Source: Spirochaetia bacterium (lineage in GTDB: Bacteria; Spirochaetota; Spirochaetia; WTKD01; G963693115). From it: a DNA stretch of 64,000 nt. Positions within the stretch are counted from its first letter, which is position 1, and each line of letters begins with the position of its first letter. The stretch is taken from NCBI GenBank assembly GCA_963693115.1, contig OY843750.1, positions 374,951 to 438,950 on the forward strand, written 5' to 3'. A model generated the notes under the pieces. The model saw only the letters and a program-made list of their open reading frames with translations. It did no database searches and had not been told where the DNA came from. The position numbers and the translations under genes are program-made. Below are positions 6,292 to 14,042 of the stretch, one piece after another.

Positions 6292-7902
6292 TCATTTGAT
6301 CAAAAATTTTTCTAAATGGACTCCCCTATTTGCCTGTTGAAGCAACGAGGTAAGAAAAATATTTTTTTCGACTTCCCACAATTCTAACTCTTTTTCTGCG
6401 AGGTTGAGTTTTTGTCGCTGTATCAAAAGAGAGGTAGATGTTTGCAAGTCTTTTTTTATTTGCTCTTCATTCAAGAGCAAACGTTCTAGCTCTATATCAA
6501 TATGAAGTTTTTCTTGTTCAAATTGTAGGGTGTTAATCGTATTTTGATATTCGATATCTTGGTCATATGCTATATCTACCCGTCTCTCTAATTCTAAGCG
6601 TTTATTTTCAATAACTAAATTTTGTAAATTTTTTAGGGGTCCGCGAGTATATGCGCTGAGAAGTGGAAACGCAAATTCTACTGAAAAGAGAATATCAACA
6701 AAAGCGTTTTCATCACCAAGGTCTGCAAACGAACTCAAAAAATCAGAGCTCTCTCTTTGCGAGGCATATCGTGGCTGAACTGATAGTGAGAGGTTCATGG
6801 TCGGTTTACCATCAATGTCTTGAAGAATGAGTTGGTTTTGTGCATTTTCGAGTGCAAGCACCGCGTCTGAAACAGCGGGATTGTTCAAAGCATCTATTAC
6901 ACCCCTCCCAAACTGACTAATAGATGGCAGATCTGCGTTGACAACAAAACTGTTGACTTGAGATTCGCTGATGCGTAGTTTTCCTTGTTGTATAAGCTGT
7001 AGCTTACGTAATGTAAGCATATCGTTAAGATGCGTGCGTTCCTTCTGCTTAAGTGCCATCGAGCTTTGAACACTAAGCAGTGCCTTATTACTATCACTCC
7101 CTTTTTCTATCTGAATTTGTAATGCTTTAAGATTGTCAGACAAAAGATTGAGCGTTGCATCAAGCAGTGGAATCTGTTTTTGGATAGTTACTATCTCTAG
7201 CACTTTTTGATATGCGTCTAGAATAATTTCATTTGTCGCTCGCATGTGGAGTACAGTATTAAGTTCAAATTCATTACGTATTTGTGCAAGTCGAATTCTA
7301 AGTGGATTAACAGTTAAGAGTGAATTGTTTACAAATAGCGGTTGATTAAATGTCCACAGAAAAGATATTTCTTGATCAACCGTAGAAAAATCACGAGAAA
7401 ATAGAAAAAAATCTTGAAGCTCAAATGTAGTGTATCCGCCAAAGGGAGTGGGGCTTTTGAGATCAACTTTCATCCCAAGATTATTATTCTTATTACTGAG
7501 TCGTAATGGTGACAAACCTGAGAACACAAGGGGGGATTGCGGATCAAGCGGATTAACAGAAAAACTAGGGATAAAGGTTTGTACAGACTGATAGCTCGGT
7601 TGGAGAGGATACACCGAAAAATTTAGTTTAGGAATCAGGAAAGAATTTCTGTCATACTGCTCTTTTTGCCGTGCTATTTCAAGTGCAATACTATTTTGCT
7701 GTGAAACAGTACTTTCTTCGTGCACTTTTGTGACCAATTCTTGTACACTATAGCTTTGTGCATACCCACCGTAGACACACCAAATTACAAAAACAAACCA
7801 CCATATCAACAACAGTGAAATATGTATGTTTCTTGTGTGTATCGATACCCTGCTTAATGTCGCGTGTTGCATAGCATACAGGAAATAATTGTCGTCTTTC
7901 AT
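6292..7902 (-). CDS. TolC family outer-membrane efflux protein
   Basis: Signal region, helical repeats with 'LDAYQKVLE', terminal aromatic beta-strand segments; downstream of MFP and RND genes. Confidence 0.7.
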   Translation of the reverse strand: MKDDNYFLYAMQHATLSRVSIHTRNIHISLLLIWWFVFVIWCVYGGYAQSYSVQELVTKVHEESTVSQQNSIALEIARQKEQYDRNSFLIPKLNFSVYPLQPSYQSVQTFIPSFSVNPLDPQSPLVFSGLSPLRLSNKNNNLGMKVDLKSPTPFGGYTTFELQDFFLFSRDFSTVDQEISFLWTFNQPLFVNNSLLTVNPLRIRLAQIRNEFELNTVLHMRATNEIILDAYQKVLEIVTIQKQIPLLDATLNLLSDNLKALQIQIEKGSDSNKALLSVQSSMALKQKERTHLNDMLTLRKLQLIQQGKLRISESQVNSFVVNADLPSISQFGRGVIDALNNPAVSDAVLALENAQNQLILQDIDGKPTMNLSLSVQPRYASQRESSDFLSSFADLGDENAFVDILFSVEFAFPLLSAYTRGPLKNLQNLVIENKRLELERRVDIAYDQDIEYQNTINTLQFEQEKLHIDIELERLLLNEEQIKKDLQTSTSLLIQRQKLNLAEKELELWEVEKNIFLTSLLQQANRGVHLEKFLIK

Positions 7903-7977
7903 CTAATTCATTTTGAAAAAGCAATAATCTCCGCCTCTACATTATATGGCATAGCGTAGAACTTGTTTGCGAGAACC

Positions 7978-8334
7978 TTATCTTGACGCCACAATAGTTT
8001 TCATTTGCTCTATAACTTCATGCATGAGTTGTTTTACCTCAGAGTCAATAGCCATAATTCCATATTTTTTAAGGAGAACATTACGGATAAACAAAATTGC
8101 TGAACGTGCAACGTTTAAGAATAATTTAACTTCTTCTTGATTAAGCGCCCTCGTCGATGCAAAACCCTCATTGTAACGCGTAAGGAGTTCTTTTTTAGCA
8201 CCATATAGCCTTTCTCTAAAGACATTCCTTGCTATAGGAGAAAATTTTTTACCCCATATCTCAAAGGAAACATGCTCAACTATTACTAACACTTTCTCCA
8301 TCGATCTATCACTAAATAGCAAAAAATCTTTCAA
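7978..8334 (-). CDS. Hypothetical 118-aa protein, putative toxin partner of the Panacea protein
   Basis: Starts 6 nt after the DUF4065 stop (TTG 8334; alternative ATG 8301); no recognised family. Confidence 0.55.
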   Translation of the reverse strand: MKDFLLFSDRSMEKVLVIVEHVSFEIWGKKFSPIARNVFRERLYGAKKELLTRYNEGFASTRALNQEEVKLFLNVARSAILFIRNVLLKKYGIMAIDSEVKQLMHEVIEQMKTIVASR

Positions 8335-8340
8335 AACAGC

Positions 8341-8895
8341 TCAATTCATGGCTGTCTCAAAGCCTGCATTTATCTTCTCGTATGTGTTAATAACCGCACG
8401 TTCTGAATCGTCCTTCTGTAATGCGTTAATAAGTAAATTACAGTTCGCTAGCGTATCTTCTTCAAAACTATTGGGTAGTCGCTGGTTCCATTCAGGAAGA
8501 CCAAGTATATACTCGGCTAACTGTGTTGCAGAGAAGTCTTTAAATTTTTCAGCTAGTCTCTTGATAATATACTCTTCTTCATCTGTCAAAGACACAATCA
8601 ACTCTTCTTGATTACCAATAAGTACTACATCGGCTCCCTTGGTTATCAAGAAAGAACTCCAGTAGTGTGTGTTGCTACCATCTGAGTGTTTCTTTATACA
8701 CTCATAGACCGACGTAAGTCGCGGACCCGTTTTTTCACTAACGTATGTGTCATAGGTAAGCCTATAATTGTACCGTTGAAGTATCTCCCTATCGGACAAA
8801 TACATAAGATTTATGAGTTTGTTATAGTTCATTGAACCACCGTACAACTTTACCAATTCAACTGCCAGTGCTGTTGCAACCACTTCATTAAACAC
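8341..8895 (-). CDS. Panacea domain (DUF4065/SocA-like) antitoxin-family protein
   Basis: KLINLMYLSDRE...RLTYDTYVSEKTGPRLTSVYECIK matches the KLxKLLYxADR...ITGDxY...GPV motif; C-terminal 'SATQLAEY..LPEW'. Confidence 0.8.
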   Translation of the reverse strand: MFNEVVATALAVELVKLYGGSMNYNKLINLMYLSDREILQRYNYRLTYDTYVSEKTGPRLTSVYECIKKHSDGSNTHYWSSFLITKGADVVLIGNQEELIVSLTDEEEYIIKRLAEKFKDFSATQLAEYILGLPEWNQRLPNSFEEDTLANCNLLINALQKDDSERAVINTYEKINAGFETAMN

Positions 8896-8939
8896 TAGAT
8901 TTTTCTCAACTTTTTATCTACTTTTTTTAAACTATAACT

Positions 8940-8973
8940 TATATAGTACTATATATTAAAAAATATTGCAATA
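8940..8973 (-). promoter_or_regulatory. sigma70-type promoter TTGCAA-N17-TACTAT overlapped by a 16-bp perfect palindrome
   Basis: -35 at 8971-8966, -10 at 8948-8943; palindromes TATATAGTACTATATA (8940-8955) and TATTGCAATA (8964-8973). Confidence 0.6.
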
Positions 8974-9064
8974 CTTTTGTAAATTTGTTTTTAAGTTAAA
9001 AAATACTACCATTACTACACCACGTTTTTACTTTAAACCACTAAGTATACATGTTTATGTTAAT

Positions 9065-12000
9065 TTAGAGACTACACTCAGGAGGTATGCGTGTAGGACG
9101 CTTGGATCCCAGCGAGTAGATCAATGGTATTACAAGCAAAGAAGCAAATACCGAAATACTCAAACCAATAGCAATAGTTATTGCCATTGGTTGCCATATG
9201 GGGGAACGTCCTGTTAATCCAACTGCCGTCGGGAGTACTCCCGCAACGGTAGTAATTGAAGTTAGTAATACTGGTTTTAGTCGTACACATGCTGTGATAA
9301 GCGCTGCCTCTGCCCTACTCTTGCTACGCTTGAGTACGTAGCTATTAGCAGAACTCACAAACACAATAGAATTATTTACCACAACGCCTATCAGTGCAAC
9401 AAGCGAATATAGTATAGATATAGAGAGATAGCTTCCTGATGAAAAAATATATATACTTACCCCAAGCACCGAAAAAGGTATGGTAAGTAATATCACAAAT
9501 GGTAGTACATAGCTGTTAAACTCGACAGTCAATACAATATATACTGCAGTAACACCAATCAATAAAAGAAACAGTATCTTACCAAAGAGCTCTGAAAATT
9601 CGTTAAATTCACCGCCCCTTGAGATTGAAAATGCTTGAGCCTCTTCTGTAGCAATGTAGTCTTCTATTTCTTTGACTATGCGCTGATTTATTTCTCTTAC
9701 CCTCGTCTTGTCTCGTGCTTCGGCGGTTACAACTGCTAGTCGCAGTCCATTCTCACGCGTGATGCGCGAGAGCGTGAGTCGTTCTTGTATAGTTGCGACC
9801 GACAGTAATGGTACAAGTGTATTGTACTGCGTAGGGACAGACAGTAGTGCCATTTTTTCTTTTGTAAAAGAGTGTGTATCACCAATACGAAGTACCACAT
9901 CTGTATTCTTGTTATCTCCTTCGTATATGCTCGTAATGGGAGAAGCCGAGAGCATGTTTCGTATTGACAGTCCTATCTCTGCAGCTGACAAACCGAGTCG
10001 TGCTGCTTCTTGTATGTGTATACGCGCAGTAATAGTGGGGCTTTTTTCGCTACTGGAGTTCTTTACATTGTATACTTCGGGGTATTCGGAGAGGATATCT
10101 TCGACTCGGGAACTAATCCTACTCAGCCCATCAAAATCAGCACCTATAATTCTAAACCCCAAGATGGGTATGGGGGGTGGTCCTGTCCGTTGTCGCCGAA
10201 TGGTAAGAGTATCATAGCCATACACATCACCTAAAAGCAACTCAATATCTTTCATGACCTGATTAAGCACAATCGAATCGCCATTATCAAATACTTCAAT
10301 TTGCACCTGCCCGGTGCTCGCCCTGTCTGTGATAATTCCCTCTGATAAATCAAGATCTGCTTCGCCCGACAAAATCAATACATGTTTTATCTTACCTGGG
10401 TTGTTGTTTCTATACCCTTGTATACGATATTCCATTTCAGACATGACGGTGTCCGTTCGTTCTAACGAACTTGCCTCGGGAAGAAGTACATCCACAAAAA
10501 AGAATGGTTGACTCTCGACCTCGTATAAACTCACTGGGGTAAAAACCAAAAACAAAATCGCCCCACCGAGTGCAAGAAACACTGCTAGAAGTATGGGGAC
10601 GGAACGTTTCATTTCGGCATAGAGTATCTGTGACAATACTTGCCTAAGACGTACAAAAAAAGCAAACTCAAAAGTACTTCCTTTTCCCGGAAATGCTAGA
10701 TAGTACAAGGGCACCATTACCATGGCAGATGCAAAGGATATAAGAAGAACAACAGTGATAGTAATCGGTATTGGAAGAAGAAATTTTCCAATAAAACTAG
10801 GCAACCATGCAAGAGGAAGAAAACTCGCAATAGTAGTAAGTGTTGAGCTAAGTACAGGAAACCGTACCTGCCTTGTTCCTTCGATAGCTGCAAGCTCTTT
10901 TGACATTCCCTTAAAATGTCTTAGACGTATGATATTTTCTACCGTTACAATACTCGTATCAACAAGCATACCAAGTACAAGCACAAAGGCAAAGAGTGTC
11001 GAACTGCTGAGCGTAATATTAAATATATTTAAGAACAAAAAGCTAGTAGCAAACGTAAAAGGGATTTCAAGCGCAATGATGACTGCAGCCCTCCACCCTA
11101 AAAATACAAGCATTACGATAAATAAGAGGATAAACCCCCCAACAGCGTTGTTTCGTAATGTAGCGATACTCCTTATAATACCACCAGTAGTATCTTTAAA
11201 AAATTCAAGCTGGAGCCCTTTAGGTATGTTAGATGCGCTCGTAGCTATTAGTTCTTCTATCGTACGTACAAGAGTGATTGAATCTACTCCACTTTCTTTA
11301 TAGATCTTTAGTTCTACTGCATTTTTGTTATTAAAGCGTATTTTTTTTTCATGTACATCATACCCACGTTGTACACGGGCTATATCTTCTACTTTTATCA
11401 TGCCACCTTCATCATCTACGCGCACTGGTAATTGTGAGATATCATCTATACTTATAAATTCGCCCGTTGTTCGCACTGCAATTTTTTGTTGTACGGTATT
11501 TAGAAAGCCTGCAGGTATAGACACATTATTGCTCTGTATACTCATAATGAGCTCTTGCAAGGAGACACCACGAGCTTCGAGTTGAGAAAGATCAAGGTCA
11601 ATAAACACCGTCTCATCTAAAAAGCCGTTATCTTCTATATAGCTAACTTCTTGTATTGTCTCGAGTTTATTTCGTATCTGTTCTGCAAACTTTTGTATAG
11701 TTGCTATATCTTGGTCACCCCAGATAACAAGCGATGTAATAGGTAAAAAATCAAGGTAGGTAAAATCATCAACAAATATCTCGCTCACTCCTTCGGGAAA
11801 GTGTATCTGTTCCACATCGCTTTTCAACTCTTGAAATTTGCTTCTAAATGTGTCTTCTTTTAGGGATTGAGAAAAGGTGACTCTCGTAAAACTCAAACCG
11901 TCAGATATAACCGAATCTATTTCGTCTATTGCATTCATAGCTTCGGCGCGTTCCTCTATCTTTCGTGTAACGGTTTCTTCTATTTTTTCTGCAGTGGCAC

Positions 12001-12193
12001 CGGGGTAAGGGACCAAGACATGCACATAAAAAAGAGGAACATCAGGATACTGCTCTCGCGGAAGCCCTACGGCGATAAATACCCCAAGCAATGCTAGAAG
12101 CCATCGTACCAATCGCAGTGATTTTGAGTGCGTAATTATCCACGATTTTTTTGTCAGGTCTTGCACGCCTTCTCCAAACTCATGTGACTCCAT
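9065..12193 (-). CDS. RND efflux permease (AcrB/AcrD/AcrF family)
   Basis: 1042 aa; LPREQYPDV, GMLVDTSIVTVENI, GVVVNNSIV, RLKPVLLTSITTVAGVLP motifs. Confidence 0.95.
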   Translation of the reverse strand: MESHEFGEGVQDLTKKSWIITHSKSLRLVRWLLALLGVFIAVGLPREQYPDVPLFYVHVLVPYPGATAEKIEETVTRKIEERAEAMNAIDEIDSVISDGLSFTRVTFSQSLKEDTFRSKFQELKSDVEQIHFPEGVSEIFVDDFTYLDFLPITSLVIWGDQDIATIQKFAEQIRNKLETIQEVSYIEDNGFLDETVFIDLDLSQLEARGVSLQELIMSIQSNNVSIPAGFLNTVQQKIAVRTTGEFISIDDISQLPVRVDDEGGMIKVEDIARVQRGYDVHEKKIRFNNKNAVELKIYKESGVDSITLVRTIEELIATSASNIPKGLQLEFFKDTTGGIIRSIATLRNNAVGGFILLFIVMLVFLGWRAAVIIALEIPFTFATSFLFLNIFNITLSSSTLFAFVLVLGMLVDTSIVTVENIIRLRHFKGMSKELAAIEGTRQVRFPVLSSTLTTIASFLPLAWLPSFIGKFLLPIPITITVVLLISFASAMVMVPLYYLAFPGKGSTFEFAFFVRLRQVLSQILYAEMKRSVPILLAVFLALGGAILFLVFTPVSLYEVESQPFFFVDVLLPEASSLERTDTVMSEMEYRIQGYRNNNPGKIKHVLILSGEADLDLSEGIITDRASTGQVQIEVFDNGDSIVLNQVMKDIELLLGDVYGYDTLTIRRQRTGPPPIPILGFRIIGADFDGLSRISSRVEDILSEYPEVYNVKNSSSEKSPTITARIHIQEAARLGLSAAEIGLSIRNMLSASPITSIYEGDNKNTDVVLRIGDTHSFTKEKMALLSVPTQYNTLVPLLSVATIQERLTLSRITRENGLRLAVVTAEARDKTRVREINQRIVKEIEDYIATEEAQAFSISRGGEFNEFSELFGKILFLLLIGVTAVYIVLTVEFNSYVLPFVILLTIPFSVLGVSIYIFSSGSYLSISILYSLVALIGVVVNNSIVFVSSANSYVLKRSKSRAEAALITACVRLKPVLLTSITTVAGVLPTAVGLTGRSPIWQPMAITIAIGLSISVFASLLVIPLIYSLGSKRPTRIPPECSL

Positions 12194-12199
12194 ATTGTA

Positions 12200-13357
12200 C
12201 TAAAATTCTGAGCTGTTACCAATAATTTGTACCGATACCGCTTGCCCTTGTATCAAAGTACGAAGACCGGTAATAACTAGGGCTTGTCCCTCGAGGGTTT
12301 GTATATCTATTCCTTGTACATGTTTAAGTTCTGCTCTCCCTGCAAACTCTTCACCCAAGTCTACATACATCTTGTATATAAGCGAATCATTTTCTATATA
12401 GACGTATTCCCCCTTTGCATCCTCTCGTACCACTGAACGTGGTATCAAAAAGGGATCCGTACTGCCCGTACTACTCAAGATAAGTTCTATGTCAACCACT
12501 TGACCGAGCTTATACGGAGGAATACTATTTGTATCCTCAAACAGTATCACAAGATCAAACGTACCCGTTCGTGGTGATACGTATTGCCCAATCTCAGATA
12601 CATACCCAGAAAATTTTTGATTTTCTGTAAATGTGATCGAGACCACATCATTAACCCGTATTTTTTCAAGAAAGAAATCTGAAACCCTACTCTCTATACG
12701 TGGTTGCGCAAGATCTGCCACCTGCGCTACAAATGTACCCGGTCCTACTGATGTTCCTTCGGTCAAGGCTTCGTTTACTTCTACAAGACTACCAGAAAAC
12801 GGTGCTCGTATAACAGATTTTTTAAGTAATAAGACCTGTTGCTTGTAGAACGATTCGGCACCAAAGAATGCTGATTGTACTTGTTGTAGCTGTGCATGTG
12901 AAGCGAGTCCTTGTCCAAAAAGTTCTTCTGTTGTCTCAAGTTGTAAACGTGCATTTGCTGACTGATAGCGCGCCGAATCTCGTGCGAGTACAAGTGATTC
13001 GTCGTCAAGTAACAGAAGTATGTCATCTTTTTTAATTATTGCTCCTTCTGTCAATTGTGTTTTGAGCACTGTCGAACTGATCTCAGTAACAAGGGTACTG
13101 GTGCGATCACTCCTAAGAAACCCTGTAAGCGAAATAGTAGAAATAAGCGGGGCTCGAGTAATACGTAGGCCCTGTACTCTTACAGAAACATCTTTCTCGA
13201 CGGTACTCTCTTCGTTTTTTTTGCAAGAATACAACAAGAGCACTGCGCTACTCAAAAAAATACAAATATACAGATACGATATGACACGCACGCCCATATT
13301 CAAGAACCTGTTTCGCGTCATACGTTGTTTTGGTATCTGCATATAGTAACTCATCAA
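12200..13357 (-). CDS. RND periplasmic adaptor (membrane fusion protein), lipoprotein
   Basis: LLYSC lipobox, 'VIRAPFSGSLV' lipoyl motif, adjacent to RND gene. Confidence 0.9.
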   Translation of the reverse strand: MMSYYMQIPKQRMTRNRFLNMGVRVISYLYICIFLSSAVLLLYSCKKNEESTVEKDVSVRVQGLRITRAPLISTISLTGFLRSDRTSTLVTEISSTVLKTQLTEGAIIKKDDILLLLDDESLVLARDSARYQSANARLQLETTEELFGQGLASHAQLQQVQSAFFGAESFYKQQVLLLKKSVIRAPFSGSLVEVNEALTEGTSVGPGTFVAQVADLAQPRIESRVSDFFLEKIRVNDVVSITFTENQKFSGYVSEIGQYVSPRTGTFDLVILFEDTNSIPPYKLGQVVDIELILSSTGSTDPFLIPRSVVREDAKGEYVYIENDSLIYKMYVDLGEEFAGRAELKHVQGIDIQTLEGQALVITGLRTLIQGQAVSVQIIGNSSEF

Positions 13358-13989
13358 TATAGGCTTCTTTCTGTAATGATAGCATGTACAGTACTATCGT
13401 GTGCCTCTACTGGTACGTACGGCACCACCTGCATAGCAAAACATAGCCCCACACAACTACACATATTTGATACGCACAGCAGTGACATTAGAGCATCATA
13501 CACTCCACCCCCTCGTCCAAGTCGCGCACGGGTAATATCAAAGGCTCTTCCTGGTACCAATAATAAACATGGTGAACTCAATAGCAATGTGGTATTTATC
13601 TTGCTTGTTGGTTTTATAGTCCATGAGGGTGTGCTGTAGTGTTTTATGTCGGAGGATTCTATGCGAGGGGTATTGAGTACTTTGCATAAGGCTCCTATAC
13701 TATGGGGGTGTGCAAGAGTACGAGGCAAAAAAACAATTCGTTTGGTGGTATCCCTGCTAAGTGATGAAACATCGGGCTCATCTTTATACGCATGATATGC
13801 AATAACCGTATGAGCGTAACGCCACCAGTGTGTTGCACGTATACGCTGACAAATACGTAAAGAATAGGTGGCAATATCCCTCAGCTTTTCCTTGGTACAA
13901 GATGCGTACTGTAATGTATGCCTCATTTCGGTTCGTAGTGCTGACTTTTTCTTGGCTATATTTTTCTTGGCTATAGAAGACAAGGTCAT
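13354..13989 (-). CDS. ygfA: 5-formyltetrahydrofolate cyclo-ligase
   Basis: KSALRTEMR, LLLVPGRAFD...RLGRGGGVYD, VPVEAHD; SD GGAGAG before ATG 13989. Confidence 0.9.
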   Translation of the reverse strand: MTLSSIAKKNIAKKKSALRTEMRHTLQYASCTKEKLRDIATYSLRICQRIRATHWWRYAHTVIAYHAYKDEPDVSSLSRDTTKRIVFLPRTLAHPHSIGALCKVLNTPRIESSDIKHYSTPSWTIKPTSKINTTLLLSSPCLLLVPGRAFDITRARLGRGGGVYDALMSLLCVSNMCSCVGLCFAMQVVPYVPVEAHDSTVHAIITERSLY

Positions 13990-14042
13990 TGATATCTCTC
14001 CCAACTCAGTATTACATTACTATCGATACCGACATCAAATAC

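Follow-up and report, generated by a model that had tools for sequence, protein, structure and literature searches.

Between the transporter and outer-membrane genes of an efflux operon, the window (the whole 64,000-nucleotide stretch of DNA that was analysed, from a host genome of the class Spirochaetia assembled as a 1.80-Mb single contig) carries a two-gene cassette. Its first gene encodes a Panacea-domain protein, and the question raised by the locus is whether its second gene encodes a new toxin that the first would hold in check. In PanAT systems, the Panacea/DUF4065 antitoxin PanA is paired with diverse PanT toxins (Kurata et al. 2022, PMC8832971; NetFlax, Ernits et al. 2023, PMC10440598), and the original prediction had put the small partner protein forward as a candidate toxin or defence effector. 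The features of the locus are listed here from the upstream to the downstream end of the operon.

12200-13357, minus strand: MFP gene, in the same efflux operon as the RND and OMP genes
9065-12193, minus strand: RND (AcrB-family) transporter gene, the upstream flank (PF00873, E 1.4e-153)
8896-9064, minus strand: spacer of 169 nt from the RND stop to the panA start, 19.5% GC, with one weak -35/-10 match (8959->8931)
8341-8895, minus strand: panA-like gene, 184 aa, GTG start directly after a TAG, TGA stop (PF13274, E 4e-15)
8335-8343, minus strand: junction, consisting of the panA TGA and two codons (GCT GTT), followed by the partner TTG
7978-8334, minus strand: partner ORF, 118 aa with the TTG start at 8334 and 107 aa with the ATG start at 8301, TAA stop; an ORFan and candidate PanT-like toxin
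7903-7977, minus strand: spacer of 75 nt from the partner stop to the OMP gene start, containing CATATAAT, a -10-like box
6292-7902, minus strand: outer-membrane factor-like gene, 536 aa, the downstream flank (weak OEP match, E 9e-4, under the Pfam cut-off)

The layout given in the original prediction was recovered in full, with ORFs of 184 and 118 aa, both on the minus strand, separated by a gap of 6 nt (8335-8340). In public gene calls the partner starts at the ATG of Met12, which shortens the protein to 107 aa and widens the gap to 39 nt. The assignment of the flanks as MFP-RND and TolC-like was confirmed by Pfam, the OEP match being the weak one, and the RND and OMP genes lie 1162 nt apart (7903-9064). 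A feature on which the original prediction is silent is that panA and the partner ORF share one reading frame, with the TGA and two codons between them. TGA is an ordinary stop in the host genome, where it accounts for 22% of long-ORF stops. An alternative genetic code that would turn the pair into one long ORF was considered and rejected on this figure and on the 74% of the genome that is covered by long table-11 ORFs.

The description of the cassette as AT-rich and as having its own promoter holds in part. The insert (7903-9064) has a GC content of 34.7%, and that of the genome averages 40.2% (sd 3.2), so that the insert is among the lowest 5% of genome windows; however, the low value comes mostly from the 169-nt spacer, and the GC content of the two ORFs is 37.3%. 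Similarly, one sigma-70-like match (8959->8931, 9/12) is present in the spacer, but the region contains 4 such matches where 6.1 are expected from shuffles, which is within chance. A palindrome, AAAAATATTGCAATACTTTT at 8959-8978, overlaps the -35-like hexamer of this match, and the spacer at 8896-9064, with the match and the palindrome, is a possible promoter/operator. No terminator-like site was found in the cassette region, including the spacer at 7903-7977, and no direct or inverted repeats of note were found at the cassette borders. The suggested link to a prophage or defence context is not borne out at this locus. The neighbours of the cassette are housekeeping genes (DNA polymerase III delta'-like, CvpA, MurG, ABC transporter, BioY, and 5-FTHF cyclo-ligase), and no prophage or defence genes were seen among them.

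Relative to same-family genomes, the cassette is an insertion. Orthologous RND genes (43-47% identity) were identified in three genomes of the same family but of another genus, where the OMP gene comes straight after the RND gene, abutting it, overlapping it, or 115 nt off. No Panacea gene is present in any of the five same-family genomes. The predicted insertion into an RND-TolC operon is supported by both results. A comparison with relatives lacking the insert had been suggested as a check, and it shows the cassette to be missing from the orthologous MFP-RND-OMP operons of the three genomes, so that it is neither fixed there nor part of a longer conserved operon. On the best-supported reading, this lineage alone acquired the module in its pump operon or has kept it there.

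As had been proposed, the 184-aa product is a Panacea (DUF4065) protein. Its match to SocA_Panacea (PF13274) scores 57.1 bits (E 4e-15; cut-off 25.7) and spans residues 28-136, corresponding to profile positions 2-112 of 113. The protein is standalone, without an extra N-terminal or other added domain, it is acidic (pI 4.8, net -9.3), and its gene is the only Panacea gene in the host genome. It has its full length and an unbroken reading frame, it retains the core motifs NY.KL, Y, D, GP, W, and PEW, and its C-terminal end coincides with the ends of its relatives.

Alignment with these relatives also bears out the view that this Panacea copy is atypical, with GPR where GPV or GPI is usual and with the His before PEW absent. 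Two columns that are invariant in 43 relatives are changed (K29N, which lies in the NYxKLxKLxY motif, and H131L, immediately ahead of PEW), and Y24, K26, Y32, G57, P58, W79, E135, and W136 are retained. Across the 40 columns conserved at >=70%, the window PanA matches 25, the fewest of 44 sequences. Its terminal branch in a maximum-likelihood tree of the 44 PanAs is the longest (2.15, median 0.54), and its exact position in the tree is uncertain for this reason; it nests in the starred clade (96/93), in which 8 of the 11 members have a MazF-like partner. In B. choladocola PanA, a core His is needed for neutralisation, which is abolished by the H120E mutation (PMC10440598). The His lost before PEW in the window PanA may, we infer, occupy the position of this residue. 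The atypical residues and the long branch fit a loss of function as well as an adaptation to a new partner.

One genome per species was scanned with the PanA alignment, which yielded 49 loci, with a readable PanA ORF in 48. A downstream ORF, mostly of 107-141 aa, lies at -26 to +72 nt from PanA in 43 of these 48 loci, and a single BLAST-linked partner family, here called family X, is found in 34 of them. The family has the consensus ...HLyiVItDPDednnvLvVNiTT...SCvLnpGDHPFIkhkSvinY...LLkkIqeGAkkSkfL, with the motifs HL..I.DPD, V.N.TT, and SC.L..G.HPFI, and it gave no match to Pfam or to PDB sequences. Its structure is predicted with a pLDDT of 95.5, and the top 50 Foldseek matches of the model in the PDB are all MazF/PemK/CcdB (probability 0.94-1.00, TM 0.5-0.6). 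By this model, family X is MazF-fold, and its counterparts in Kurata et al. (PMC8832971) are the MazF-like "RNase" PanTs. Of three IMG/VR phage contigs, two also carry the PanA–family X pairing.

Other arrangements are found among the related loci as well. Four PanAs are without a downstream partner (L033, L049, L055, and L067, of which L067 comes from a genome of the same order), and in locus L056 PanA is joined in frame to a truncated MazF-like gene as a degenerate fusion. In two Spirochaetia loci, L063 and L064, the partners are near-orphan helical proteins, 107 and 112 aa long. Kinship of the window partner with these two proteins was rejected, since nothing was found by BLAST or hhalign, and an AU test weakly rejects a grouping of the window PanA with the L063/L064 PanA clade (p 0.041). 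Membership in family X was likewise rejected, with an HMM score of 1.9 bits, an hhalign probability of 1.1%, and singleton status in BLAST clustering. A decayed or frameshifted MazF-like gene at the locus was also considered, and the family X HMM gives no signal in the six frames of 7850-8450.

The 118-aa partner is a true ORFan. Both a word-indexed search of 5.8 billion clusters and an exhaustive phmmer search over 1.84 billion representatives returned only the partner itself, and a six-frame search of 40 relatives returned no homolog. The partner has no match among PDB sequences or in Pfam, NCBIfam, PADLOC, and PHROGs (Pfam hmmscan to E <= 10), in agreement with the earlier statement that it could not be assigned to any family, and no toxin motif was found in it. 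The RND, OMP, PanA, and partner proteins are all singletons at 90% identity among ~15 billion proteins, no near relative was found in two metagenome scans, and the host species has been sampled once only. Co-conservation is the usual criterion for a predicted toxin–antitoxin pair, and it cannot be shown here because the partner has no homolog. A conserved pairing with DUF4065, for which the original prediction had suggested a search, was accordingly not found, and the nearest PanAs pair with the MazF-fold family. That the orphan partner is a new PanT is plausible but unprovable.

The portrayal of the partner as a basic, helical protein agrees with its calculated properties (pI 9.7, net +5.7) and with an all-helical structure prediction. 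It is without a transmembrane segment, and AlphaFold2, run without an alignment, predicts four helices (9-30, 33-57, 66-91, and 96-116) at low confidence (mean pLDDT 57.5). Amphipathicity is significant for only one of the four helices and was not counted as support. Foldseek searches with this model of pLDDT 57.5 gave nothing significant in the PDB (best E ~0.5) or in the viral fold library BFVD.

Based on these data, the best reading of the locus, to which we would give a probability of about 40%, is that a PanAT-type pair has exchanged its original partner for an undescribed candidate toxin. According to this model, a PanAT-type (type II-like) module would have entered the efflux operon at the boundary of its RND and outer-membrane genes. 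The ancestral partner in the clade of the window PanA would have been a MazF-fold toxin, the gene for which would have been replaced in this lineage by an unrelated gene encoding a basic, all-helical protein of ~107-118 aa. The panA gene and the partner gene would share a transcript, either one that begins in the AT-rich spacer or that of the pump operon. PanA, an acidic Panacea protein that stands alone, would bind the basic partner directly and hold it inactive, and the partner would arrest growth once PanA is lost or triggered. An action of the partner on nucleic acid or the ribosome would be more likely than membrane damage because the protein is soluble, basic, and helical.

This model is consistent with several properties of described PanAT loci. 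Partner swapping within PanA clades is frequent (PMC8832971), and the window partner, being unrelated to the partners of sister PanAs, fits this pattern. Standalone Panacea proteins are able to neutralise directly (PMC10440598), and the window PanA is such a protein, with a domain that scores above the Pfam cut-off. Antitoxin-first order prevails in the PanAT loci of one study (943 vs 325; PMC8832971), and in the NetFlax network Panacea pairs are mostly toxin first (PMC10440598); in the window cassette the antitoxin gene leads, the gap is a few nt, the location is chromosomal, and there is one copy per genome. The partner lies on the same strand at 6 or 39 nt, within the 100 nt used as a locus criterion by Kurata et al. 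(2022). The pairing of the acidic PanA (pI 4.8) with a basic partner (pI 9.7) provides the charge complementarity that a working pair would show. Unlike its nearest relatives, the window PanA is without two residues that are invariant among them. Co-transcription of the two genes, toxicity of the partner, its neutralisation by PanA, and a complex of the two proteins are what we infer.

A closer comparison is offered by PanA pairs with a MazF/PemK-fold PanT, of which there are P. moraviensis and B. ruminantium examples (PMC8832971). The window PanA falls in a clade with that pairing, and gene order, spacing, and partner size (~120 aa) are alike. In contrast, the window partner is predicted to be all-helical rather than an SH3-like barrel, and no MazF-like relic is present. 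Counted against the partner-swap reading are the absence of a homolog, toxin motif, or fold match for the partner in the searches described above, the position of the window PanA as the most divergent of 44, its loss of two invariant residues, one of them the His before PEW, the single amphipathic helix of four, and the finding that 8 of 25 predicted PanTs tested by Kurata et al. were non-toxic in E. coli (PMC8832971). A stronger version, in which the partner is a new, lineage-restricted toxin/effector fold that displaced the MazF-type toxin and the loss of the PanA Lys and His records a re-adaptation of the neutralising surface, appears rather doubtful.

The main rival to the partner-swap reading is a decaying or retooled module, in which the MazF-type toxin would have been lost, PanA would be an orphan, fast-evolving gene, and the 118-aa product would be a real protein but not a toxin. 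That protein could be a small nucleic-acid-binding regulator, an accessory protein, or the product of an unrelated lineage-specific gene sharing the transcript. We consider such a state possible, if tentatively so. It would account for the longest branch in the tree and the two lost invariant residues, and it has precedents among the relatives in the four orphan PanAs and in the degenerate PanA/truncated MazF-like fusion of L056. The partner, moreover, carries no toxin signature in Pfam, NCBIfam, PADLOC, PHROGs, or Foldseek, the proportion of non-toxic PanTs cited above applies here too, and only about half of DUF4065 genes are found in conserved toxin–antitoxin-like pairs (PMC8832971). Against decay, PanA has kept its full length, an uninterrupted frame, and its core motifs, and no frame of 7850-8450 retains a MazF-like relic. 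In addition, the 6-nt coupling and the acid/base complementarity are as expected of a working pair, and both genes are intact with a host-like coding signal.

A different possibility concerns the fold of the partner, which could be a very distant member of the PF05635 four-helix bundles (23S rRNA intervening-sequence protein/DGR Avd-like) that was recruited beside a Panacea gene; this would be a bolder variant of the new-fold version, with the partner as a remote Avd/PF05635-type basic four-helix bundle. The top Foldseek matches in the PDB include 2gsc at rank 1 and Avd (4dwl, 8ub8) at ranks 4-8, with non-significant values (E 0.5-1, TM 0.36-0.47) obtained from the poor AlphaFold2 model. We take 2gsc (Xcc0516) and Avd (4dwl, 8ub8) to be bundles of the PF05635 type. 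A phmmer comparison to 12 Spirochaetia members gave a co-linear match, RE.LYG ... EG ... FL.[IV]AR[GS], of 8.1 bits, which was reached by 2 of 500 shuffles, and a subfamily HMM gave 4.5 bits, reached by 25 of 2000. The size of the partner (~110-120 aa), its four predicted helices, and its basic character agree with such a bundle, Avd being basic as well. However, the Pfam HMM finds nothing in the host genome at E <= 10, nor does hmmscan of the partner, the hhalign probability is 0.1-0.2%, and an HMM built from the 12 sequences scores 0.3 bits. In addition, a PanA neighbour is present in 0 of 17 PF05635 loci of Spirochaetia, and the genes inspected near the cassette included no reverse transcriptase and no DGR elements. 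The weak motif and fold resemblance leaves membership in this family unlikely.

A further alternative is that the partner ORF is no gene and stays open by chance, in which case a solo Panacea gene would be separated from the OMP gene by a long spacer. In favor of a chance frame, no homolog was found among ~15 billion proteins, a convincing Shine-Dalgarno sequence is absent before both the TTG and the ATG start, the AlphaFold2 confidence is low, and an estimated ~1-2 random frames of this length would occur per 64 kb of 35-40% GC DNA in six frames. The coding signal was scored with a codon model trained on real host genes, with 844 spurious frames (100-199 codons) as the contrast set. The partner scores 0.13, compared to 0.17 +/- 0.10 for genuine genes and -0.18 +/- 0.11 for spurious frames; this is the 29th percentile of genuine genes and a value reached by 0.1% of the 844 spurious frames (likelihood ratio ~64). 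The 440-nt stretch that holds the ORF has no other long frame, the ORF lies on the operon strand, 6 nt past the panA stop, and the chance that a 118-codon frame stays open in DNA of ~35% GC is estimated at ~2e-4 per frame. Most related loci have a partner gene at the same position. Because of its host-like codons, its status as the sole long frame, its strand, and this shared position, the 118-aa ORF is very probably a real gene, as judged from its sequence, and a chance frame is quite improbable.

Finally, it is very unlikely that the two ORFs are halves of one former 305-aa Panacea gene with a C-terminal helical extension, separated by a nonsense mutation (TGA 8341-8343) or joined by occasional read-through, as might be suggested by their common frame with only the TGA and two codons between them, by the in-frame fusion in L056, and by the existence of PanAs with added C-terminal neutralising helices (Phd-C; PMC10440598), since a shared frame is expected by chance in 1 of 3 cases, phmmer over 1.84 billion representatives found no Panacea protein that is extended by a related C-terminal domain, the window PanA stops where its relatives stop, TGA is a normal stop in the host genome, and a separate downstream gene is present in 43 of 48 related loci.

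The locus is a further PanAT-like case and belongs to a class of systems that is already well described, rather than founding a new one. Its practical value is limited, with a singleton protein from an organism sampled once and with Panacea loci with unknown partners already described in large numbers. If the partner proves to be toxic and neutralised by PanA, another unrelated toxin would be added to the Panacea repertoire, and if it is a remote Avd/PF05635 bundle, that large family would have its first link to toxin–antitoxin biology. With toxicity and neutralisation borne out, the cassette would also be a natural example of a recent swap from a MazF-fold to a helical partner. K29N, H131L, and the GPV-to-GPR change would then point to residues that set partner specificity, and such residues bear on how one domain neutralises unrelated toxins.

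Directly 3' of genes for PanA, the Panacea (PF13274) antitoxin, lies a conserved family of proteins of about 120-140 amino acids, found at 34 loci from many phyla and on two phage contigs (coordinates local to each locus):

loci within L019-L065, for example L023:3530-3901 and L047:3505-3873, MazF-like PanA partner family
L085:970-1368 and L087:2936-3367, the same family on viral contigs

Sequence searches of Pfam and the PDB returned no match for this family, and no profile for it was present in the libraries searched. Its predicted structure (pLDDT 95.5) has a MazF/PemK/CcdB-like fold (Foldseek probability 1.00), and the family is probably one of the MazF-like clusters of PanT, the PanA-paired toxins, described by Kurata et al. 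2022. In one Endomicrobium genome, a complete PanA is joined in frame to a copy of the partner with a truncated N-terminus, in what looks like a deletion that merged antitoxin and toxin into a single gene:

L056:2965-3777, PanA–MazF-like fusion ORF, 270 aa, Endomicrobium MAG JAISLA010000003

In another Spirochaetia genome, two PanA genes are each followed by a helical, near-orphan partner of 107 or 112 aa. Both partners carry P[HY]..PIKR[VA]F as a motif at the N-terminus; among 5.8e9 protein clusters, only two members were found for the partner at L063:

L063:3539-3862 and L064:3441-3779, near-orphan helical PanA partners, Spirochaetia MAG OZ253446

The window's own genome is a closed 1.80-Mb contig with a completeness score of only 85.9%. 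Four of its proteins, the RND pump among them, were compared with 15 billion proteins, and each is a singleton at 90% identity. Because there is just one sample of the lineage, all comparative tests in the window are limited. Upstream of the window's panA, a palindrome overlaps the sole -35-like hexamer and is a possible operator, although this PanA lacks a DNA-binding domain:

8959-8978, palindrome AAAAATATTGCAATACTTTT

Two further observations concern genes in or next to the pump operon:

6292-7902 (-), outer-membrane partner gene of the pump, sub-threshold OEP/TolC match
13354-14004 (-), 5-formyltetrahydrofolate cyclo-ligase gene (PF01812, E 8.5e-23)

The former scores 19.5 bits against OEP/TolC, below the Pfam cut-off of 22 bits. 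Judged from sequence, its product is a fast-evolving outer-membrane factor, because identity to same-family orthologs is 24-31%. The cyclo-ligase gene shares 4 nt with the beginning of the MFP gene and appears to be the first gene of the pump's transcription unit.
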